A stretch of DNA of 64,000 nt from Escherichia coli (GTDB lineage Bacteria > Pseudomonadota > Gammaproteobacteria > Enterobacterales > Enterobacteriaceae), in NCBI RefSeq assembly GCF_003018255.1, contig NZ_CP027440.1. One strand, given 5' to 3'. Both the position numbers and the translations under genes were made by a program. The notes under the pieces were generated by a model. That model was not told where the DNA came from. It saw nothing but the letters and a program-made list of their open reading frames with translations, and searched no databases. Each line of letters starts with the position of its first letter. Position 1 is the first letter of the stretch. Shown one piece after another: positions 108 to 10,377 of this stretch.

Positions 108-283
108 GCTGTATTCCTTATTTGGACCATACAGAGAGAAAAACCGGTACAGATGAGGCTAAAAAACCGGATGCAGATGCTGTTTTAACCTGTCTGTATG
201 TTAAATAAAACTAATATTTGCATCTGTATTGTGAACTGCCAGAAGACGGATGATGAAGCCTCTGAAAGATGAGGAGGCAGCAG

Positions 284-448
284 ATGGAATTTCACGAAAA
301 CAAAGCTAAAGCACCGTTTATTGGACTTGTGCAACTCTGGCAGGCAGTGAGGCGTTGGCGGCGGCAAATGCAGGCCCGGCGGGTGTTACAGCAGATGAGT
401 GATGAGCGGTTGAGGGATATTGGGTTACGCAGGGAGGATGTGGAGTGA
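284..448 (+). CDS. yjiS: DUF1127-family small protein (54 aa)
   Basis: ATG at 284 preceded by GAGGAGG; hand translation MEFHENKAKAPFIGLVQLWQAVRRWRRQMQARRVLQQMSDERLRDIGLRREDVE; below the 60-aa cut-off of the ORF track. Confidence 0.7.
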   Translation: MEFHENKAKAPFIGLVQLWQAVRRWRRQMQARRVLQQMSDERLRDIGLRREDVE

Positions 449-544
449 TGGGGCAGTTCGTCGCGGATAAACAGGATTTCTCTATAACCTCCACAAGGAA
501 GTGGTTATTATTGCGAAATCATCGCTTCACGGAAAGACGTCAGA

Positions 545-2638
545 ATGAAAGCTACAGAAGCCCGCCTACTCGATTTTTTAAAACGTTCGCAGCAGTTTGT
601 TATTCCCATTTATCAACGGACTTATTCATGGACAGAACAACAATGTCGGCAACTTTGGGACGACATCATTCGTGCCGGAAAGCGTGACGATATATCAGCG
701 CATTTTATCGGTTCGGTTGTTTATATAGAGCAGGGATTGTATCAGGTTTCTGGTATTTCTCCGTTGCTGGTCATTGATGGTCAACAGCGGCTGACGACCG
801 CAATGTTGCTGATTGAGGCTTTATCACGCCATCTTGGCGAAGACGAAGTTTTTGATGGCTTTTCAGCAATGAAATTGCGTAATTATTATTTACTCAATCC
901 TTATGAGTCCGGCGAGAAAGGATTTAAATTACTGCTGACCGAGACTGATAAAGACAGTTTGCTGGCGTTAATAAAACAAAGACCAATGCCAGAAAACTAT
1001 TCCCATCGAATAATGGAAAACTTTACTTTCTTTGATGAACAAATTGCCAAACTCGGTGATGACTTGATCCCCTTATGTCGTGGGTTAGCAAAGTTATTAA
1101 TTGTCGATGTGGCGCTTAATCGTGGTCAGGATAATCCGCAACTGATTTTTGAAAGTATGAACTCCACCGGTAAGGCGTTAAGTCAGGCCGATCTGGTGCG
1201 CAATTTTATTCTGATGGGCCTCGAACCAGAGCATCAAACCCGGTTGTATGAAGATCACTGGCGTCCAATGGAAGTCGCTTTTGGTCAGCAAGGTTACAGC
1301 GAATATTTTGACAGCTTTATGCGTCATTATCTGACGGTAAAAACGGGGGAGATCCCTCGGACAGATGAAGTCTATGAGGCATTTAAACTCCATGCCCGCA
1401 GCCAGAGTGTTGCTGAAAAAGGCGTAGATCGGCTGGTTGAAGATATTCACATCTACGCGGAGTATTACTGTGCAATGGCATTGGGAAAAGAAAGTGACAA
1501 ATCGCTTGCTACGGCTTTTCAGGATTTGCGCGAGTTAAAGGTCGATGTGGCATATCCTTTCTTACTGGCGCTTTATCATGACTATAAAAATGGCGATTTG
1601 CCTCACGAAGATTTCCTGAGCATAATTCGTTTAATTGAATCTTATGTTTTCCGCCGTGCAGTATGTGCGATTCCGACGAATTCTCTTAACAAGACGTTTG
1701 CCACTTTTTATAAAGTCATTAATAAAGAAAAATATCTGGAAAGTATTCAGGTACATTTTCTGAATCTGCCTTCATATCGTCGTTTCCCCAACGATGATGA
1801 ATTTAAACGGGAATTAAAAGTTCGCGATCTCTATAACTTCCGTAGTCGCAGCTACTGGTTACGACGACTGGAAAACGATAAACGCAGAGAGCGCGTGGAA
1901 GAGTTTACGATTGAGCATATTATGCCGCAGAACGAAAATCTGTCGGCTAAATGGCGCGAAGAGTTGGGAAGCGACTGGCAGCGTGTGCATAAAGAATTGT
2001 TACATACGTTGGGGAATCTCACTTTAACGCGCTATAACTCCCGCTACAGTGACAGACCTTTCGCGGAAAAACGCGATATTGAAGACGGCTTTAAGCATAG
2101 CCCGCTTTATTTGAATATCGGTCTTGGACAGTGCGAAAAATGGGATGAAGCCGCCATTCACGCCCGAGCCGATCGTCTGGCCGATCTTGCGGTTCAGGTT
2201 TGGCAAGCGCCTGCTCTTCCTGAAGAGGTTTTAGCTGTTTATCGGGCGCAGCCGGAGAACAAAACCAGTTACAGCCTGAGTGATTATCCTTTTCTTGCTG
2301 ATGGTTCGCATAGCCGGGTGTTATTTGATCATCTTCGCGATGAAGTTATGCGCCTGGACGCAGGGATCACGCAGGAAGTATTGAAGCTCTATATTGCGTT
2401 TAAAGCTGAAACGAATTTTGTTGATGTTGTGCCGCAAAAAAGCCGACTGCGATTGTCGCTTAATATGCAGTTTCATGAACTGGTCGATCCGAAAGGTATT
2501 GCCAAAGATGTGACAAATGTTGGGCGATGGGGCAATGGCGATGTGGAAATTGGTTTCAGTGACCTCGCACAACTTCCTTACATTATGGGATTAATTCGTC
2601 AGGCATTTGAAAAACAGATGGAGAACGCGTTGGTATAA
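545..2638 (+). CDS. GmrSD-like DUF262 (ParB/Srx-like NTPase) + DUF1524 (His-Me finger nuclease) protein; candidate modification-dependent type IV restriction endonuclease, 697 aa
   Basis: N-terminal motifs IPIYQRTYSW and DGQQRLTT typical of DUF262; C-terminal EHIMPQN...H...GNLTLT...N resembles a DUF1524 His-Me nuclease motif; sits where K-12 has yjiT-mcrCB. Confidence 0.75.
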   Translation: MKATEARLLDFLKRSQQFVIPIYQRTYSWTEQQCRQLWDDIIRAGKRDDISAHFIGSVVYIEQGLYQVSGISPLLVIDGQQRLTTAMLLIEALSRHLGEDEVFDGFSAMKLRNYYLLNPYESGEKGFKLLLTETDKDSLLALIKQRPMPENYSHRIMENFTFFDEQIAKLGDDLIPLCRGLAKLLIVDVALNRGQDNPQLIFESMNSTGKALSQADLVRNFILMGLEPEHQTRLYEDHWRPMEVAFGQQGYSEYFDSFMRHYLTVKTGEIPRTDEVYEAFKLHARSQSVAEKGVDRLVEDIHIYAEYYCAMALGKESDKSLATAFQDLRELKVDVAYPFLLALYHDYKNGDLPHEDFLSIIRLIESYVFRRAVCAIPTNSLNKTFATFYKVINKEKYLESIQVHFLNLPSYRRFPNDDEFKRELKVRDLYNFRSRSYWLRRLENDKRRERVEEFTIEHIMPQNENLSAKWREELGSDWQRVHKELLHTLGNLTLTRYNSRYSDRPFAEKRDIEDGFKHSPLYLNIGLGQCEKWDEAAIHARADRLADLAVQVWQAPALPEEVLAVYRAQPENKTSYSLSDYPFLADGSHSRVLFDHLRDEVMRLDAGITQEVLKLYIAFKAETNFVDVVPQKSRLRLSLNMQFHELVDPKGIAKDVTNVGRWGNGDVEIGFSDLAQLPYIMGLIRQAFEKQMENALV

Positions 2639-2684
2639 CGTGGCGAATAATACCCGGTAGCACTGGCGCTACCGGGTCAATGTA

Positions 2685-3026
2685 TCAGGCGACTTTCTGT
2701 TTACCCGCAATCACCCCAATAAATTCCCGCACCTGCTTTTGTTTACGCGCCGACAGCTTGCACACCTGGCGCAGCGACTGCATTAGCTCGCTCTCTTCGG
2801 GGGCGGGTGGTTGGGCGGTGAGGACAATACAGCCTTCCATCACTTTGACAGCTATCGCCGTGCCGGTGGCAAAACCGGCGGCTTCCAGCCACTGACCTTT
2901 CAGGGTGATGGCGGGAATACGGCTGTAATCCGGGTAGCGACTCGCATAACTCACGGTTAATTGACGGTTATTTGCCGGGGAGACTTCTGCTTCGAACGGT
3001 TGTGCAATAGAATGCGTGTCAGTCAT
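2685..3026 (-). CDS. symE: SymE SOS-induced toxin (type I toxin-antitoxin, AbrB-fold RNase-like), 113 aa
   Basis: Translation from ATG at 3024-3026 ([52 protein letters not shown]...) matches SymE; AAGGA Shine-Dalgarno; the ORF-track N-terminal extension is probably not translated. Confidence 0.85.
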
Positions 3027-3097
3027 AACTGCTATTCCTTGAAAATAGTGATTGTGATGAGCGGTGCGGGTGTGTTGGCGCACATCCGCACCGCGCT
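3020..3097 (+). ncRNA. symR: SymR-like cis-antisense sRNA covering the symE start codon and 5' UTR (approximate ends)
   Basis: Plus-strand -10 TAGAAT at 3008-3013 with weak -35 TTCTGC; the start would fall a few nt inside symE, as described for SymR; a 14-bp stem-loop at 3062-3095 could be the 3' end. Boundaries are inferred. Confidence 0.4.
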
Positions 3098-3246: not shown

Positions 3247-4983
3247 TTAGTTTATCGCCGCGTTAGTCAGTGCGTCTGCAAGGTGCAGTTGGGTTTGTTG
3301 GGCGGTTTTTATACGAGTTTTAAGCTTATCGCATAGTTCATGAAGTAAACCTACTTGTGAAAATATTCTATATTGTTCAGTTAATGGTGGGCATGGGAAT
3401 GAATACAACATTACACTATTTGCTGATAGGTTGGGTTGTGCTGAGCCATTATCAAAGCGGTAAATCTGTGAGCGCCCAAATGGACTGGTTAAATAATTAT
3501 AAATATACCCTCCCATTTCTGTGATAAATGGTCTAATGATCATTAGTGATGAGGCAATAGCTCCTGTTTCATAGGGGGTTACAAAGGCAGTTTTACCAAA
3601 AGTTGCTCCTCGTAGGCAATAAACCAAATCACCTTTTTGAATTTTCCCACTTCTTAATTCATTAAATTTTCCTTCGGTTATAAAATTCATTTCTGTAACC
3701 GTAAGTGTACCATTTTTTTCTATATGTCCAGTATTGATCCAAGGAATACCTTGAGAAACATACTCATTTTTATTGGGATAATTACTTCCACGATCGCCAT
3801 TTATAAACTCTGATGTTAAACCAAATTTACACCACTCCCACCCTTCCGGCAGTTCAAACGGTTTTTCCTCATTGCTAATTGGCGGTAGTGGTTTTTGTTT
3901 TTTTATTTTCCCTTCTTTCACCAGTTGAGCTTTTTCCTGCGCAATTCGTTTGAGCAGTTCAGAGGCGGGTTCGTCATTCGGATCCTGCGGCACAAGTTTA
4001 CCCATTACGGCCAGTTGAAGAATGGTCTGTTTTAACGCATCCACGCTGGCTTCGGTGGTAAATAGGGTGTCGAAATGCTCGCTAATACGCGCCCAGTTTT
4101 CAGCCAGTTCCTCGGCGTTTTGGCTGTCTGTAAGCGTTCCCAACAGGGTTTCAACCAGTTGCTGATGTGCGTCCAGACTGGTCAGGGATTGCTGTTCCAG
4201 TTGGTCGCAGAGAACTGTAAGTTCTCTGATTTTTCTGACAATTTGTTGTTGTTCATTTATAGGCGGTAAAGCGATTATCTGTTGTTCCATTTTTTCTTTA
4301 GTCATATGGAGCATTGCAATACCGTTACCTTGCGATTTTATTTTATCTGTAATGGATAAAAGAAAATCATGTATAAAATATTTGTTTGAGTACTCTTCTG
4401 CAAATAAATTTAATTTCCATATATGGTAGTGATAAATTACTTTTTCTCCTGTCCAAATGAATGGCCCAAAAGATGCGGACCAAGCGTATATTAAATCACC
4501 ATTATTTATATATTTGTTTTCGTCTAATTGGAGGTCAGAGTAATACCACTCATTTGATGTGAATAGATTACCAACACGCAGCAAAGGAGTGCCTGTTTGA
4601 AGCATTTCATGTTTTTTATATGCTCGACCGTTAATAACCTCCATGAGATCTGCAACCCGCACCCACTCCCATCCCTCCGGCAATTCAAACGGCTTCTCTT
4701 CCTCGCTAATTCCTGGCAGTGGTTTTTGCTTTTTAATTTTACCTTGCTTCACCAGCTCTGCTTTTTCCGCAGCAATACGCTTCAGCAGCTCCGACGCCGG
4801 TTCATCATTCGGATCCTGCGGCACCAGTTTACCGCGCACCGCCAGTTCCAGAATCAGCTCACGCAATTTCTTAATGCCATACAAATCAATTTTACCGGAA
4901 CTGCCGCGCCCGGCGGTGGAACGGGTTTGCAACGCCGAGGTCCAGGTTTCCATATGATCAACGATCAGCTTTTCCACACTCAT
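3247..4983 (-). CDS. hsdS: Type I restriction-modification specificity subunit HsdS (578 aa)
   Basis: Two AT-rich variable domains separated by duplicated conserved segments (KLVPQDPNDEPASELLKRIA...KPFELPEGWEW twice); start overlaps the hsdM stop (TGATG). Confidence 0.85.
   Translation of the reverse strand: MSVEKLIVDHMETWTSALQTRSTAGRGSSGKIDLYGIKKLRELILELAVRGKLVPQDPNDEPASELLKRIAAEKAELVKQGKIKKQKPLPGISEEEKPFELPEGWEWVRVADLMEVINGRAYKKHEMLQTGTPLLRVGNLFTSNEWYYSDLQLDENKYINNGDLIYAWSASFGPFIWTGEKVIYHYHIWKLNLFAEEYSNKYFIHDFLLSITDKIKSQGNGIAMLHMTKEKMEQQIIALPPINEQQQIVRKIRELTVLCDQLEQQSLTSLDAHQQLVETLLGTLTDSQNAEELAENWARISEHFDTLFTTEASVDALKQTILQLAVMGKLVPQDPNDEPASELLKRIAQEKAQLVKEGKIKKQKPLPPISNEEKPFELPEGWEWCKFGLTSEFINGDRGSNYPNKNEYVSQGIPWINTGHIEKNGTLTVTEMNFITEGKFNELRSGKIQKGDLVYCLRGATFGKTAFVTPYETGAIASSLMIIRPFITEMGGYIYNYLTSPFGRSQIYRFDNGSAQPNLSANSVMLYSFPCPPLTEQYRIFSQVGLLHELCDKLKTRIKTAQQTQLHLADALTNAAIN
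3829..4032. repeat. hsdS internal direct repeat, copy B (central conserved region)
   Basis: About 200 bp, roughly 80-85% identical by eye to 4660-4863; encodes the second GKLVPQDPNDEPASELLKRIA...PFELPEGWEW segment. Confidence 0.7.
4660..4863. repeat. hsdS internal direct repeat, copy A (N-terminal conserved region)
   Basis: Direct repeat partner of 3829-4032 within the same gene. Confidence 0.7.
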
Positions 4984-6452
4984 CAGTTAACCTCCTTGCC
5001 AGACAGCGCAGCGCCAAGAATATCGCGCAGTTGATTACGCAGCGTCTGGATCTCCGCCTGCTGTTTTGCATACTGCGCTAACAGTTCGTCCGGGTCATGG
5101 CTGACGGTTTCCGCCTGATGTGGGTTTTTAATATCCAGATTGAAGTTACGCGCAATCACGTCATCAATGCTGACTTTCCACGCTTGCTCATTCTCGATGC
5201 GGCTGGCAAAACCATCGGCCTCGTTACCCCACCAGTCAATCTCCGCCTGAAACTCTTCGAACTTCATCGGCTTGGTTTTACTGTAATTTTTCACGCCCGC
5301 CGGATACGGATGCTCATAGAACCAAATCTCTTTGGTTGGCTGACCTTTGGTAAAAAACAACAGGTTGGTTTTAATGCCGGTATAGGGGTTAAACACACCA
5401 TTCGGTAAACGCACGATGGTATGCAGATTGCACTCTTCGGTAAGCAGCTTTTTGATTTTGGTTTTAACGCCTTCGCCAAATAGCGTGCCATCCGGCAATA
5501 CCACCGCCGCGCGACCGTTTTTCGCCAGTACTTCCACAATCAGTTGCAGAAACAGATCCGCTGTTTCGCGGGTTTGCATCTCTGCCGGAAAGTTCTTCTC
5601 AATACCGTCTTCTTCCGTGCCACCAAACGGCGGGTTGGTAACAATGACATCCAGTTGCTCATCCCAGGAGGAAAGCGGTTTGTTCAGGGTGTTGTCGTGA
5701 CGAATTTGTACAGGCACTTCAATGCCGTGCAGCAGCATATTGGTGGTCGCCAGCAGGTGCGGAAGCTGTTTTTTCTCGACACCGTGGATCTGTTGTTGCA
5801 GCGTCTGATGATCGGCGACGCTCTTCACGTATTTGTTCTTTACATGATCGAACGCGCAGGCAAGAAAACCGCCCGTACCGCAGGCCGGGTCCATAATGGA
5901 TTCGCCGAGTTTCGGATCAACGCGATCCACCATAAAGCGAGTGACGGCGCGTGGCGTATAGAATTCGCCAGCATTGCCCGCAGATTGCAGATCTTTAAGG
6001 ATCTGTTCGTAAATATCACCAAACAGATGGCGTTCGCTGGCGCTGGTAAAGTCAATTTCGTTCAGCTTGTTGATCACCTGGCGCAGTAGCGTACCGTTTT
6101 TCATATAGTTATAGGCATCGCTGAACGCCTGCTTCACCACGTAGCCGCGTGGGTTTTTATCGATAGGCGCAGTGAGGTTTTTCAACGCCGGGAACAGATC
6201 ATCATTAACGAATTCCAGCAGGGAATCACCGGTAATGCCCTGAGCGTTTGCGGCCCAACTGCGCCATAAATAACGCTGTGGGATCGGATATTGATAGTTA
6301 TCCTGCTCCAGTTCCAGCGCCTCTTCCTGGGCATCGAAGATTTTCAAAAACAGCAGCCAGGAGAGCTGACCGAGACGCTGCGCATCGCCATCCACACCGG
6401 CATCTTTGCGCATAATATCTTGTAATGATTTGATTACTGAACTGATAGACAT
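4983..6452 (-). CDS. hsdM: Type I restriction-modification N6-adenine DNA methyltransferase HsdM
   Basis: SAM-binding motif DPACGTGGFL and catalytic NPPFGG present. Start chosen at ATG 6450-6452 (MSISSVIK...); in-frame alternative ATGs at 6464 and 6488 (longest ORF 4983-6488). Confidence 0.85.
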   Translation of the reverse strand: MSISSVIKSLQDIMRKDAGVDGDAQRLGQLSWLLFLKIFDAQEEALELEQDNYQYPIPQRYLWRSWAANAQGITGDSLLEFVNDDLFPALKNLTAPIDKNPRGYVVKQAFSDAYNYMKNGTLLRQVINKLNEIDFTSASERHLFGDIYEQILKDLQSAGNAGEFYTPRAVTRFMVDRVDPKLGESIMDPACGTGGFLACAFDHVKNKYVKSVADHQTLQQQIHGVEKKQLPHLLATTNMLLHGIEVPVQIRHDNTLNKPLSSWDEQLDVIVTNPPFGGTEEDGIEKNFPAEMQTRETADLFLQLIVEVLAKNGRAAVVLPDGTLFGEGVKTKIKKLLTEECNLHTIVRLPNGVFNPYTGIKTNLLFFTKGQPTKEIWFYEHPYPAGVKNYSKTKPMKFEEFQAEIDWWGNEADGFASRIENEQAWKVSIDDVIARNFNLDIKNPHQAETVSHDPDELLAQYAKQQAEIQTLRNQLRDILGAALSGKEVN

Positions 6453-6518
6453 GTTGTATTCCATGAAAAACAAGGCCTTCTGCAACATGATGGTTGCAGA
6501 AGGCGCAAAAGAGAGTTG

Positions 6519-8951
6519 TTAAGCAGAGCGGGGCGGTAATTGGTAGATTTCGTTTTCCAGCTCGCTGAGCGCCTGATTATACCCGTTACGGTCGCCAAAT
6601 CCGGTTTTAATAATCTCCGGTAAGGTGCCCATGCTGTCGAATGGTTTAAGTTTCAGCACCTGAATACTTTCGATCTCCTGTACGCCCGCATCGGCGTATT
6701 TATCCAGCAGATTATCGAGCACGGCTTGCGCTGCTTCAGAGTATTTTGTGAAGTAGTTCCGCTTGCGCACGTTCTCGGCGCGCTCTTTGCGGGTTAACGG
6801 CGGCTGACCATACACTACGTGGCAAAGCATGTCGAACGGGTCGAGATCTTTACCGACTTCTTCTGCCAGTACTTCCCAGATGATCCCCTGTTGTTCCAGC
6901 TCGTGAATGATCGCTTCTTTGCGATCGGCGTCCTGCCACTTGCGGGTAAAGTCATCCAGCGAGGCATATTCTTTGAGCAGTGTTTTGCGGGTGTAATCTT
7001 TAAAAGATTCGGTAACCAGTTTACCGTCGGCATCGTAATACTGAACACGCTGCGCAATAACGCCCACCGCTACACCGTTGACGTGAAACTTGCGGATTTT
7101 CTTCTCGTCTTCTTCCGGAAGTGGGCCGACATCATCGGTATCGGTAACCTGGTATGGTGGCGCAGGCGGTTCATCAACGCCTGTTACCTGTTCGTCGTCA
7201 TGTTCGCTGATTTCTTCGAGTTTCTCTTCAAAATCAGATTCTGGATCGGCGATATCCTCTGATGTGGTATCCATGACTTTTTCGGGAATGCCATCGAAAC
7301 GCTCATCGGCAAACAGTTCGGTGGCTTTTTTAAAGTCGAGGATGGTAAACCAGAGTTTGCCGTAACGTTCGTCGATGCGTGTACCACGACCGATAATTTG
7401 CTTGAATTTGGTCATCGACTGGATGTTCTGGTCCAGTACTACCAGTTTGCAGGTTTTAGCATCCACACCAGTGGTCATCAGCTCTGAAGTGGTCGCGATA
7501 ACCGGGTACGCTTTTTTCGGGTTGATGAAGTTATCCAACTGAGCTTTGCCAATTTCATCATCGCCGGTGATTTTCATGACGTATTTGTCGTTCTTTTTCA
7601 CCTGCTCCGGGTTGAGATTCACCAGGGCGCGGCGCATACGTTCTGCATGATCGATGTCGTTACAGAAGACGATGGTTTTATCCATCGGGTTGGTGCGCTT
7701 GAGGTAGTCGGTAATGGTTCTGGCAACCAGTTCTGTCCGTTCGTCGATTACCATCGTGCGATCGAAATCTTTCTGGTTATAGATACGATCGTCGATCACT
7801 TCGCCGTTTAAGTCAGTTTGCCCTTTGGTTGGGCGCCAGCCTTGCAGATCAACATCAATATCAACACGGACAACTTTATAAGGGGCGAGGAAGCCGTCTT
7901 CGATCCCTTCTTTTAGCGAGTAGACGTAAACCGGATCGCCGAAGTAATCCGTGCTGGAGACTTCATGCGTCTCTTTTGGCGTGGCGGTTAAGCCAATTTG
8001 GGTGGCGGAACTGAAATAATCAAGGATCTCTCGCCAGGCGCTGTCTTCGGATGCGCTGCCGCGATGGCATTCGTCGATCACGATCAGATCGAAGAAATCT
8101 GGTGCGACTTGTTTAAACGCTTTTTGGTCTTCCTCCGGGCCAGTTATAGCCTGATAGAGCGCGAGGTGAATTTCATAAGCGGGATCAATGGTGCGTCCGC
8201 TGACTTTGGTCATTGCCGTACCAAATGGCTGGAAATCATTATTTTTGGTTTGGTCGACCAGAATGTTGCGATCGGCAAGGAACAAAATGCGTTTTTTATT
8301 TTTTGATTTCCACAGGCGCCAGATGATCTGGAATGCGGTATAGGTTTTCCCTGTTCCGGTCGCCATGACCAGCAGAACGCGGTTTTGCCCGTTGGAGACG
8401 GCTTCAATGGTTTTGTTGATTGCCTGAAGCTGGTAATAACGAGGCGATTTGCCGCTGCCATCGTCGTAATAGTCCTGAGTAATCACCGGAAGCTGAGCTT
8501 GTGTGTATCCTTTCCAGAGGCAGAATTTTTGCCAGAGTTCAGCGGGGGAGGGGAAGTCATCCAGCGTTATTTGCTTTTCAAGGCATTCACCTTCAGCTGC
8601 GGTGGCATCGCGGAAGATAAAGCCATCACCGTTGGTGGCAAAAACAAAAGGAACGTCCAGCAGGCGCGCATATTCAATGCCCTGTTGCATCCCTTTGCCA
8701 ATTTCATGTTTGTTGGCTTTTGCTTCAATCACGGCTAAGGGAATGCCTGGTTTGTGATACAGCACGATGTCAGCAGATTTTACCGTTCTGCGTGCCGCAA
8801 CTTTACCACGTACGATGACTTTACCGTTCCGGAGTTTGACCTCCTGTCTGATTTGCGTTGTGTTGTCCCAGCCTGCATTGAGAATGGCTGGCATAACGCA
8901 TTTGGTAATGATGTCTGCTTCCGTCAGGTTACTTAGGTTCAGTTCCGCCAT
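6519..8951 (-). CDS. hsdR: Type I restriction endonuclease subunit HsdR, 810 aa (EcoAI-like / type IB size class)
   Basis: Helicase motifs [11 protein letters not shown] (Walker A) and VIDECHRG (DECH box); 810 aa is far shorter than EcoKI-type HsdR; gene order hsdR-hsdM-hsdS on the minus strand. Confidence 0.9.
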
Positions 8952-9091
8952 GGGGTGTTCTCATCTAAATGCGATGCGTAAATTCTACACAGAAAAATAG
9001 ATGAATTCATCTGTTCAAAGAGTATTATCAGCGTTAAGTCACTGTTTTAAAGGTATTCTTGAGTTTCATCAATAGCTGGATAAGGATTCAT

Positions 9092-10060
9092 ATGGAGAAT
9101 GTTCGGTTCTTGCAAGGAGTGAAACAATATTTTTGTACTAAGGCATTAGATGTCATTCTGCTAATTTATCTACTCCTTGGTTTTATACTTCTCCCTTATA
9201 AATATCTGTGGAAAGATATTATTTTATCTCTGTACTTTGTTGGTATTCTTCTTTATGCATTAGTGGAAGAAAATCGCATTGCAGAATATATGGGGTATTT
9301 TGTTAAGTTCAGTAATAAAAACAGGTTGAATAGTTGTGCTGCCTGGTGTTCACTTATTGCATGGTTTATATTTTTGTTTTTTGTGCTTTCAATTAATATT
9401 TTTCCAGTCAGTGCCTCTGTATATATTTTTAGTGCTTTTTCATTATTTGTTTTTCTGGGGGGTATTTTTATTATATTAGAGTTAGAGTTTAAAGAAAATA
9501 AAAAATTAATGATTATTAGGTCTGTGACTATAGCAGTCATGCCAATTATATATTTATTCACAAGTAGTTATGCTTCCAGTTTATTTTTAAGTTTGAGTAA
9601 TCTAAACATTACGCTAACTCCATGGGTTGAGTATTTCTGGAAAGGGATGGTTTTTATGTTGCTTTTCTTCATGTTAATGCAACTTATTATCTATTTTGCT
9701 TTTTTAACTCTGGGGACTAAATTAAGTGTGTATAGGTTGTTTATACTTGCCGGAGCATTTGTAGTATCTACTTTTTTAGTGGCTTTTGCTTTAAAAAATG
9801 TAGAAGGTATTTCGTACTACGTTTTAAAAAGCACCATAGATTTTGAATGGCGTAATCAGATTAAATGTGGCCAGTTGAATATTTCACGTTCGAATGAAAA
9901 GTATTTTGGGTTTAATACTGATAAATATACTGTATTTTATTCCGGCAGAGATGGTAAATGGGGCTTTGATGAGTTGAAATGTAAGAAAGGTTCTGACAGG
10001 AGAGATGCATATTCTATTGAGAATGTCTCAGAATATAACGTGCCTGGATGGCTGAAATAA
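9092..10060 (+). CDS. Hypothetical polytopic membrane protein (about 7 TM helices plus 80-aa hydrophilic C-terminal domain), very AT-rich gene
   Basis: Long ORF in AT-rich DNA; ATG at 9092 preceded by AAGGA (the ORF track begins at a TTG at 9059); hydrophobic segments throughout; lies where K-12 has mrr; I recognise no family. Confidence 0.55.
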   Translation: MENVRFLQGVKQYFCTKALDVILLIYLLLGFILLPYKYLWKDIILSLYFVGILLYALVEENRIAEYMGYFVKFSNKNRLNSCAAWCSLIAWFIFLFFVLSINIFPVSASVYIFSAFSLFVFLGGIFIILELEFKENKKLMIIRSVTIAVMPIIYLFTSSYASSLFLSLSNLNITLTPWVEYFWKGMVFMLLFFMLMQLIIYFAFLTLGTKLSVYRLFILAGAFVVSTFLVAFALKNVEGISYYVLKSTIDFEWRNQIKCGQLNISRSNEKYFGFNTDKYTVFYSGRDGKWGFDELKCKKGSDRRDAYSIENVSEYNVPGWLK

Positions 10061-10377
10061 GTCATCTTTATAAATTATATAGTAAAGGTTCTGGTCATAA
10101 ACGAGCATAGTTAAACATAAACGGGGCATACTCCACACACTTGATGTGCAGCAAGAAGTTGAACTCATGGCTTTGGTTAATAAATCTGACGAAGATATTG
10201 ATTACAGCGACATTCCTGCGTCTGGTAGCGAAGCATGGGCTGACGCCACACGCGGCAATTTTTTGCCAGATCCAGGTATTCACGCGCAATAAAACTTAGC
10301 GGAGGGGAGCACGTCGTTCTGTTTCCCCCTCACTGCTAAGTGGGGCATTGGGTTGCTTTACACTCAACCTTTTACGA

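Follow-up and report, generated by a model that had tools for sequence, protein, structure and literature searches.

Eco94GmrSD (PMC4437046) and BrxU (PMC8565348) cut DNA carrying modified cytosine in a reaction stimulated by nucleoside triphosphates (NTPs), and both need the (D/E)H residues. DndI (Protein Data Bank entry 9JFL; Tang et al., 2024, PMC11662687) is a phosphorothioate (PT)-sensing ATPase and nickase. Its gene shares a transcript with dndFGH, its function requires dndBCDE, and in the absence of PT it is toxic. HEC-06, according to a preprint (Payne et al., 2024, bioRxiv 10.1101/2024.01.29.577857), defends Escherichia coli K-12 delta-RM on its own and loses its activity when either the DGQQR motif (Q79, R80) or the EH motif (E471, H472) is mutated. 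Here we describe a gene of the same superfamily at positions 545-2638 of a 64,000-nucleotide stretch of an E. coli genome (contig NZ_CP027440.1; the whole stretch is called the window below), where it lies within the immigration control region (ICR) next to a type I restriction-modification (R-M) system.

The gene, its family and its location in the ICR are already known. An ICR homologue of GmrSD in E. coli APEC O1, APECO1_2080, was reported in 2015 by He et al. (PMC4437046), who gave it a predicted function only, found it to be 24% identical to Eco94GmrSD and listed as its neighbours hsdS, hsdM, hsdR and mrr together with genes for an endoribonuclease and a GTPase. Locus tags (APECO1_2080, UTI89_C5048 and others), when looked up in the literature, led only to that paper. 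A review in EcoSal Plus places GmrSD in 12% of 9,040 ICR loci (2025, PMC12707154). Enterobacterial GmrSD proteins were clustered by Silas et al. (2025, PMC12373910); CLS_001 is the largest and commonest cluster of that study, and the window gene belongs to it. In O157:H7 the supplement applies this label to two gene fragments directly 3' of yjiS, which agree in coordinates and lengths with the frameshifted O157:H7 copy that we examined (L008). What is new here is the finding of relatives with at least 70% identity in distant phyla, often within type I R-M operons, the identification of DndI as the closest solved relative, and the way in which RefSeq splits the gene.

We favour, with moderate confidence, the reading that the product of the window gene is a functional GmrSD-superfamily nuclease that acts in defence on its own. 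By analogy with its characterised relatives it would be driven by NTP and dependent on DNA modification; it would belong to a DndI/HEC-06-like branch, and its gene would have been acquired as a cassette of the ICR. The gene and the parts of its product are as follows.

545..2638, plus strand: open reading frame of the GmrSD-family protein, 697 amino acids; ATG at 545, TAA at 2636-2638, no internal stop
569..1210 (aa 9-222), plus strand: GmrSD_N/DUF262 (ParB/Srx-like NTPase) domain; Pfam PF03235, 9.4e-35
1211..1786 (aa 223-414), plus strand: helical linker region, all-helical; AlphaFold2 helices at 228-406, predicted local distance difference test (pLDDT) score mostly >85
1787..2185 (aa 415-547), plus strand: GmrSD_C/DUF1524 His-Me finger nuclease domain; Pfam PF07510, 1.6e-26
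2186..2635 (aa 548-697), plus strand: C-terminal region
2315..2614 (aa 591-690), plus strand: DUF5655 within the C-terminal region; Pfam PF18899, 3.4e-13

The last in-frame stop upstream of this frame ends at 487, and therefore a start much further 5' is ruled out. A preliminary description of this DNA had proposed a fusion of DUF262 and DUF1524 on the basis of short motifs; the two Pfam models are matched strongly, and every motif that it quoted is in place. On the N-terminal side these are IPIYQR (aa 20-25, nt 602-619) and DGQQR (aa 78-82, nt 776-790), with FESMNSTG in addition (nt 1148-1171); in the nuclease domain they are EHIMPQN (aa 457-463; EHIMP at nt 1913-1927), H487, GNLTLT (aa 490-495, nt 2012-2029) and N498. 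Across 30 homologues D78, G79, Q80, Q81, R82, F202, E203, N206 and G209 are invariant; the same is true of P461, N491, L492, T493 and L494 in the nuclease domain, where E457, H458 and N498 are nearly so. Both domains lie on one chain: the frame is uninterrupted, and the protein aligns in one unbroken stretch, the linker (aa 223-414) included, with the PADLOC Orf5 profile of 543 positions. The full-length AlphaFold2 model has a pLDDT of 88.3. No NCBIfam model is matched by the window protein.

Where does this protein belong within the superfamily? The best PADLOC model is Orf5 PDLC02693 (3.8e-223), aligned end to end over aa 10-553, followed by other 'Orf5' models and by HEC-06 (2e-67, aa 8-555); the SspE and type IV models are far weaker, and those for SspE cover only the first ~100 residues. 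A partial DndI sequence searched against the same collection matched PDLC02701 (4.5e-148) with residue numbers in agreement, and thus 'Orf5' is the PADLOC name for DndI-like proteins; this model of DndI itself matches the window protein at 1.6e-28, as against the 3.8e-223 of PDLC02693. Among solved structures, a phmmer search ranked 9JFL (DndI) first (5.9e-13), then SspE (3e-6), with BrxU not significant, and a Foldseek search with the AlphaFold2 model gave the same order (9JFL, 7e-16, TM score 0.5-0.56; SspE, 4e-14; BrxU, 7e-5). The closest solved relatives are therefore the PT-sensing proteins DndI and SspE and not BrxU. On profile and fold comparisons the window protein sits on the DndI/HEC-06 side of the superfamily, rather than on that of BrxU and CT596. 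The GmrSD/BrxU/SspE-type architecture suggested in the preliminary description thus survives as a statement about domains, upheld by PF03235, PF07510 and PADLOC, but the nearest solved structure is DndI, which is not a modified-cytosine enzyme.

By analogy with the characterised nucleases, the ParB/Srx-like domain at the N terminus, which carries DGQQR, would bind and hydrolyse NTP and so drive a conformational or oligomeric cycle, and this cycle would license nicking or cutting of DNA by the His-Me finger at the C terminus (E457-H458 ... N491/N498). Host DNA with ordinary Dam, Dcm and type I methylation would be spared, and incoming DNA with a non-host modification would be attacked, most plausibly DNA with hypermodified phage bases. 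In this way the nuclease would cover phages able to evade the type I R-M system next door. DUF5655 probably adds a contact with DNA or a ligand and may contribute to target discrimination. The intact frame, the domains, motifs and fold, the location, the distribution and the purifying selection are direct observations; by analogy we infer that the protein is a nuclease, that it depends on NTP and on DNA modification, and what DUF5655 does. Our confidence is held at a moderate level because the dependence on modification belongs to this second group, and a 'type IV' label for the protein would likewise follow from family membership. The complete and significant domains and motifs, together with the full-length alignments to PADLOC defence models (Orf5 and HEC-06), support the reading. 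So do the properties of HEC-06, Eco94GmrSD and BrxU given at the outset, and the finding of Silas et al. (2025, PMC12373910) that eight of 15 enterobacterial GmrSD groups restricted T-even phages, CLS_001 having been among the groups tested. The purifying selection, the neighbourhoods of relatives and the wide distribution described below also speak for it.

Several points weigh against it. The closest solved relatives, as described above, sense PT. A promoter scan of the sequence 5' of the gene found nothing above chance. Our search of the literature returned no experiment on the window protein; Silas et al. (2025, PMC12373910) set one synthesised representative per group against T-even phages, but the accessible text does not name the five new groups that were active. 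Furthermore, the three-domain architecture of ~700 residues recurs with at least 70% identity in Citrobacter, Halomonas, Oceanimonas, Nitrincola, Salinivibrio, Polycyclovorans and Kiritimatiella glycovorans (Kiritimatiellota), and such sequence identity across phyla is unusually conservative for a defence gene, for which an arms race with phage inhibitors would be expected.

Another explanation, which we consider unlikely, is that the protein senses a self mark in the manner of DndI and SspE: it would attack DNA that lacks the host mark, and sensing of that mark, either PT or N6-methyladenine placed by the adjacent type I methyltransferase, would drive NTP hydrolysis and release. DndI is indeed the best solved match by both sequence and fold, PADLOC puts DndI and the window protein under the same 'Orf5' name, and in many relatives the gene is flanked by hsdS on one side and hsdR on the other. 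The PT-sensing Y25 of DndI (PMC11662687) also aligns with Y23 of IPIYQR; however, Y23 belongs to PxYQR, a motif found throughout the superfamily, and this match therefore does not discriminate. Against such a mechanism, the DndI model PDLC02701 scores just 1.6e-28 and identity to 9JFL is 17-18%, the same allele stands beside different type I systems, and near some relatives no type I system is seen. With regard to PT in particular, no dnd or ssp genes were found in the locus, where the neighbours are yjiS, symE and hsdSMR. No PT systems were recorded in 9,040 ICR loci and Dnd occurred in 2% of the neighbouring hotspot (PMC12707154), whereas about one E. coli genome in four has the gene. Cells that lack PT are harmed by DndI (PMC11662687), and HEC-06 is active in a host that has no PT system. 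Because of these four points, the window protein probably needs no PT.

The C-terminal region deserves separate comment. The ~150 residues (548-697) that the preliminary description had placed after the nuclease domain are real, but they do not lack a recognised family: they contain DUF5655, a catalogued Pfam family of unknown function. The region is modelled as an alpha-beta sandwich of the YdhG/YjbR/frataxin-like type. YjbR has been described as having a 'double-wing' DNA-binding shape like that of MotA, which provides a lead rather than a test. Residues K620, T623-N624-F625, D627, P630-Q631, N640, D648-P649 and G663-N664-G665 are strongly conserved, and the most economical reading is that DUF5655 makes a contact with DNA or a ligand. 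When aa 548-697 were searched against 1.84 billion protein cluster representatives from public genomes and metagenomes, 1464 proteins were found at E <= 0.001, most of them members of the same family or its fragments. Among the remaining cluster representatives, DUF5655 occurs in tandem copies that match the PADLOC candidate PDC-S18, in some cases is fused to a SLOG domain, a radical-SAM fragment or HsdS-like sequences, and is also joined to an HsdM N-terminus and a GmrSD_C fragment. Representatives with DUF5655 in such other settings include P0244, P0199, P0209, P0272 and P0268, some of which may be deletion products. We considered the HsdS-DUF5655 and HsdM-GmrSD_C-DUF5655 fusions as evidence of physical coupling and set them aside as weak, since they are single cluster representatives and possible deletion products. 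A literature search for 'DUF5655' found nothing beyond an unrelated genome note.

The neighbourhoods of ten relatives and of two E. coli arrangements (12 loci) were compared. Three of the relatives (L004, L015 and L017) lie between hsdS and hsdR, with start and stop codons that overlap both hsd neighbours, one (L014) is found among other embedded genes between hsdS and hsdR, and one comes just after hsdR, so that in L004, L005, L014, L015 and L017 a type I operon contains the gene or ends with it. In one further relative hsdR is ~5 kb away; another, distant, follows a BrxL gene at the end of a BREX-like operon; the last three have other defence-type genes close by, and no type I system was seen there. 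Overall, a type I system is adjacent or within 5 kb in eight of the 12 loci. In other phyla, the orthologues between hsdS and hsdR (L004, L015, L017 and L014) are sometimes accompanied by Abi_C, Fic, Abi_2 or AAA_13 genes, and type I operons there thus carry several embedded defence genes. By analogy with BrxU in BREX, this adjacency fits a modification-dependent enzyme that backs up one blocked by modification; a functional link to type I systems would be compatible with it as well. The cassette described here contains no partner gene, but many relatives are inside type I operons. An allele that is 99% identical stands beside a type IB system in the window and beside a K-12-like hsdR-hsdM-hsdS-mrr arrangement in APEC O1, which argues against dependence on one partner.

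Two explanations build on the link to type I systems. The first, in our view doubtful, is that the protein represents a highly conserved, three-domain, type I-embedded subfamily and not a classical type IV enzyme for modified cytosine; DUF5655 would then be a new sensor of a DNA mark or of the state of the type I complex, and the nuclease would back up or read out type I restriction. The second, to which we give slightly less credence, is a PrrC-style accessory or back-up effector coupled to the type I complex, in which DUF5655 would dock onto HsdM or HsdS and phage anti-restriction proteins, by disabling the type I enzyme, would release the nuclease. The overlapping start and stop codons of operon-embedded relatives, and the direct fusion of DUF5655 to HsdS-like proteins in some metagenomic sequences, are what such coupling would lead one to expect. 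However, the window gene is convergent to the hsd operon with symE in between, the HsdS and HsdM fusions are single representatives that are perhaps deletion products, several relatives have no type I neighbour, and the related HEC-06 acts alone in a restriction-free host.

Equally improbable, in our estimate, is an abortive-infection nuclease that acts independently of modification and is triggered on infection by a phage protein or a nucleotide signal instead of a DNA mark. The fusion of DUF5655 to the nucleotide-sensor-like SLOG domain and its occurrence in PDC-S18 point in this direction, and the high sequence conservation would suit a conserved trigger; but all characterised members of the GmrSD superfamily read DNA modification, and none works by an infection trigger.

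A megablast search matched the gene in 1480 of 5426 complete E. coli genomes, about a quarter and far more than the number with PT systems (PMC12707154), and in 1360 of these at least 80% of the gene length was covered, mostly at 95-99% identity. Public collections include the identical protein, 697 aa long and named 'DUF262 domain-containing protein'; clustering at 90% identity places it with 3852 members in all. A second allele (699 aa, 76% amino acid identity) occupies the same chromosomal region in other E. coli strains (9001-11100 in L003), where it is transcribed divergently from another type I R-M operon, has Fic and BrnA genes after it and lacks symE beside it. Against this allele the number of nonsynonymous substitutions per site (dN) is 0.16, that of synonymous substitutions (dS) is ~2.9, which is saturated, and the overall dN/dS is ~0.055. 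As the per-domain dS is saturated as well (and undefined for the N-terminal domain), only dN and the overall ratio were used; per-domain dN lies between 0.09 and 0.20, with that of DUF5655 as low as that of the nuclease domain. The gene is under strongly purifying selection.

In the O157:H7 lineage (L008), one G has been lost from a GGGGG run at codon 267, equivalent to window position 1345, and this deletion splits the gene into products of 293 and 387 aa, of which the 387-aa fragment is annotated separately. RefSeq, through its annotation pipeline PGAP, presents the intact 697-codon frame in the same form, as a 5' 'DUF262' pseudogene and a 387-aa 'GmrSD' coding sequence that starts at the internal Met311. 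This was seen at 12001-14094 in L001 and 12614-14707 in L013, which correspond to window positions 545-2638, and it happens even at 100% DNA identity to the window; for that reason the split is an artefact of annotation. In GenBank submissions the protein has all its 697 aa. It looks as though RefSeq propagates the O157:H7 fragment as evidence. The practical consequence is that an intact gene is masked as a pseudogene plus a fragment. That the window copy itself is a decaying or non-functional remnant, as the O157:H7 deletion and the RefSeq pseudogene call in intact copies might suggest, is very improbable, given that it is uninterrupted, keeps every invariant catalytic residue, belongs to a gene under strongly purifying selection and is split in RefSeq only by artefact.

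The cassette that carries the putative nuclease gene and the features around it are listed below.

449..2684, strand not assigned: variable cassette of 2.2 kb between yjiS and symE, defined by pairwise alignment with K-12 MG1655
269..448, plus strand: yjiS (DUF1127), conserved left anchor
2685..3026, minus strand: symE, conserved right anchor; NCBIfam NF010128, 2.4e-67
3021..3097, plus strand: symR, small RNA antisense to symE; Rfam RF01809, 91.7 bits
2652..2677, strand not assigned: perfect GC-rich hairpin of 10 bp, flanked by the stop codons of the GmrSD-like gene and of symE, which converge

In the pairwise alignment, homology to K-12 MG1655 is lost right after the yjiS stop (~449) and regained right after the symE stop (~2685). 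These exact breakpoints bear out the earlier proposal that the gene sits between yjiS and symE in the slot that K-12 uses for McrBC; the K-12 counterpart is a 7.6-kb segment with yjiT, mcrC, mcrB and also the pseudogene yjiV'. The GC content of the gene and cassette is 0.42-0.48. We considered K-12 yjiT as a truncated homologue and rejected it: YjiT has no similarity to the window protein, and the 697-aa gene is therefore not a longer yjiT. The hairpin at 2652-2677 has a predicted RNA folding energy of -23.3 kcal/mol (z -1.9), falls within the variable cassette and lacks a clear U-tract; a terminator scan did not call it, and from its sequence and position it is a possible bidirectional transcript end. 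Downstream, the type I R-M system (3247-8951; hsdS, hsdM and hsdR) is of the EcoAI family (type IB), in contrast to EcoKI (type IA) in K-12. Its hsdS is long (578 aa) and has a repeated segment, 'LVPQDPNDEPASELLKRIA...KIKKQKPLP...EEKPFELPEGWEW'. The slot that holds mrr in K-12 (9059-10292) is very AT-rich (GC ~0.30) and encodes a predicted multi-pass membrane protein of ~320-330 aa, which has no annotation, and a small open reading frame.

As a discovery this adds little, and the interest of the gene is modest and centred on the substrate, the conserved DUF5655, the strong conservation and the embedding in type I operons. It is, however, among the commonest predicted restriction genes in E. 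coli, with many pathogenic lineages included, and its target, if known, would help to predict phage host range and barriers to DNA uptake.

In comparison with known systems, the APEC O1 copy (L013) is the same gene, identical at 690 of 697 residues, of equal length and in the same place beside symE and a type I R-M system. It differs at seven amino acids (12614-14704 in L013), including P21T in IPIYQR, and it neighbours a K-12-like hsdR-hsdM-hsdS set and mrr where the window strain has a type IB system. Pro21 is nearly invariant, and the threonine of APEC O1 may affect activity. HEC-06 resembles the window protein in the near-equal positions of the essential residues in its DGQQR and EHxxP motifs (Q79/R80 and E471/H472, against Q80/R82 and E457/H458 here), but it has ~560 aa, no DUF5655 and a place embedded in Hma systems. 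Similarly, DndI shares the layout of DUF262, linker and DUF1524 and the PADLOC name 'Orf5', although identity is just 17-18%, DndI has no DUF5655 and the window locus has no dnd genes. The type IV enzymes Eco94GmrSD, EcoCT596GmrSD and BrxU, which act on hydroxymethylcytosine, glucosylated hydroxymethylcytosine and 5-methylcytosine, have both Pfam domains, DGQQR and (D/E)HxxP on single chains as the window protein does; they are very distant from it, are prophage-borne or embedded in BREX, and lack DUF5655, and no BREX gene was seen in the window locus. Finally, McrBC of K-12 occupies the same chromosomal slot and is NTP-dependent and directed at modified DNA, but it is an unrelated system encoded by two genes, which pairs an AAA+ GTPase with a PD-(D/E)xK nuclease.

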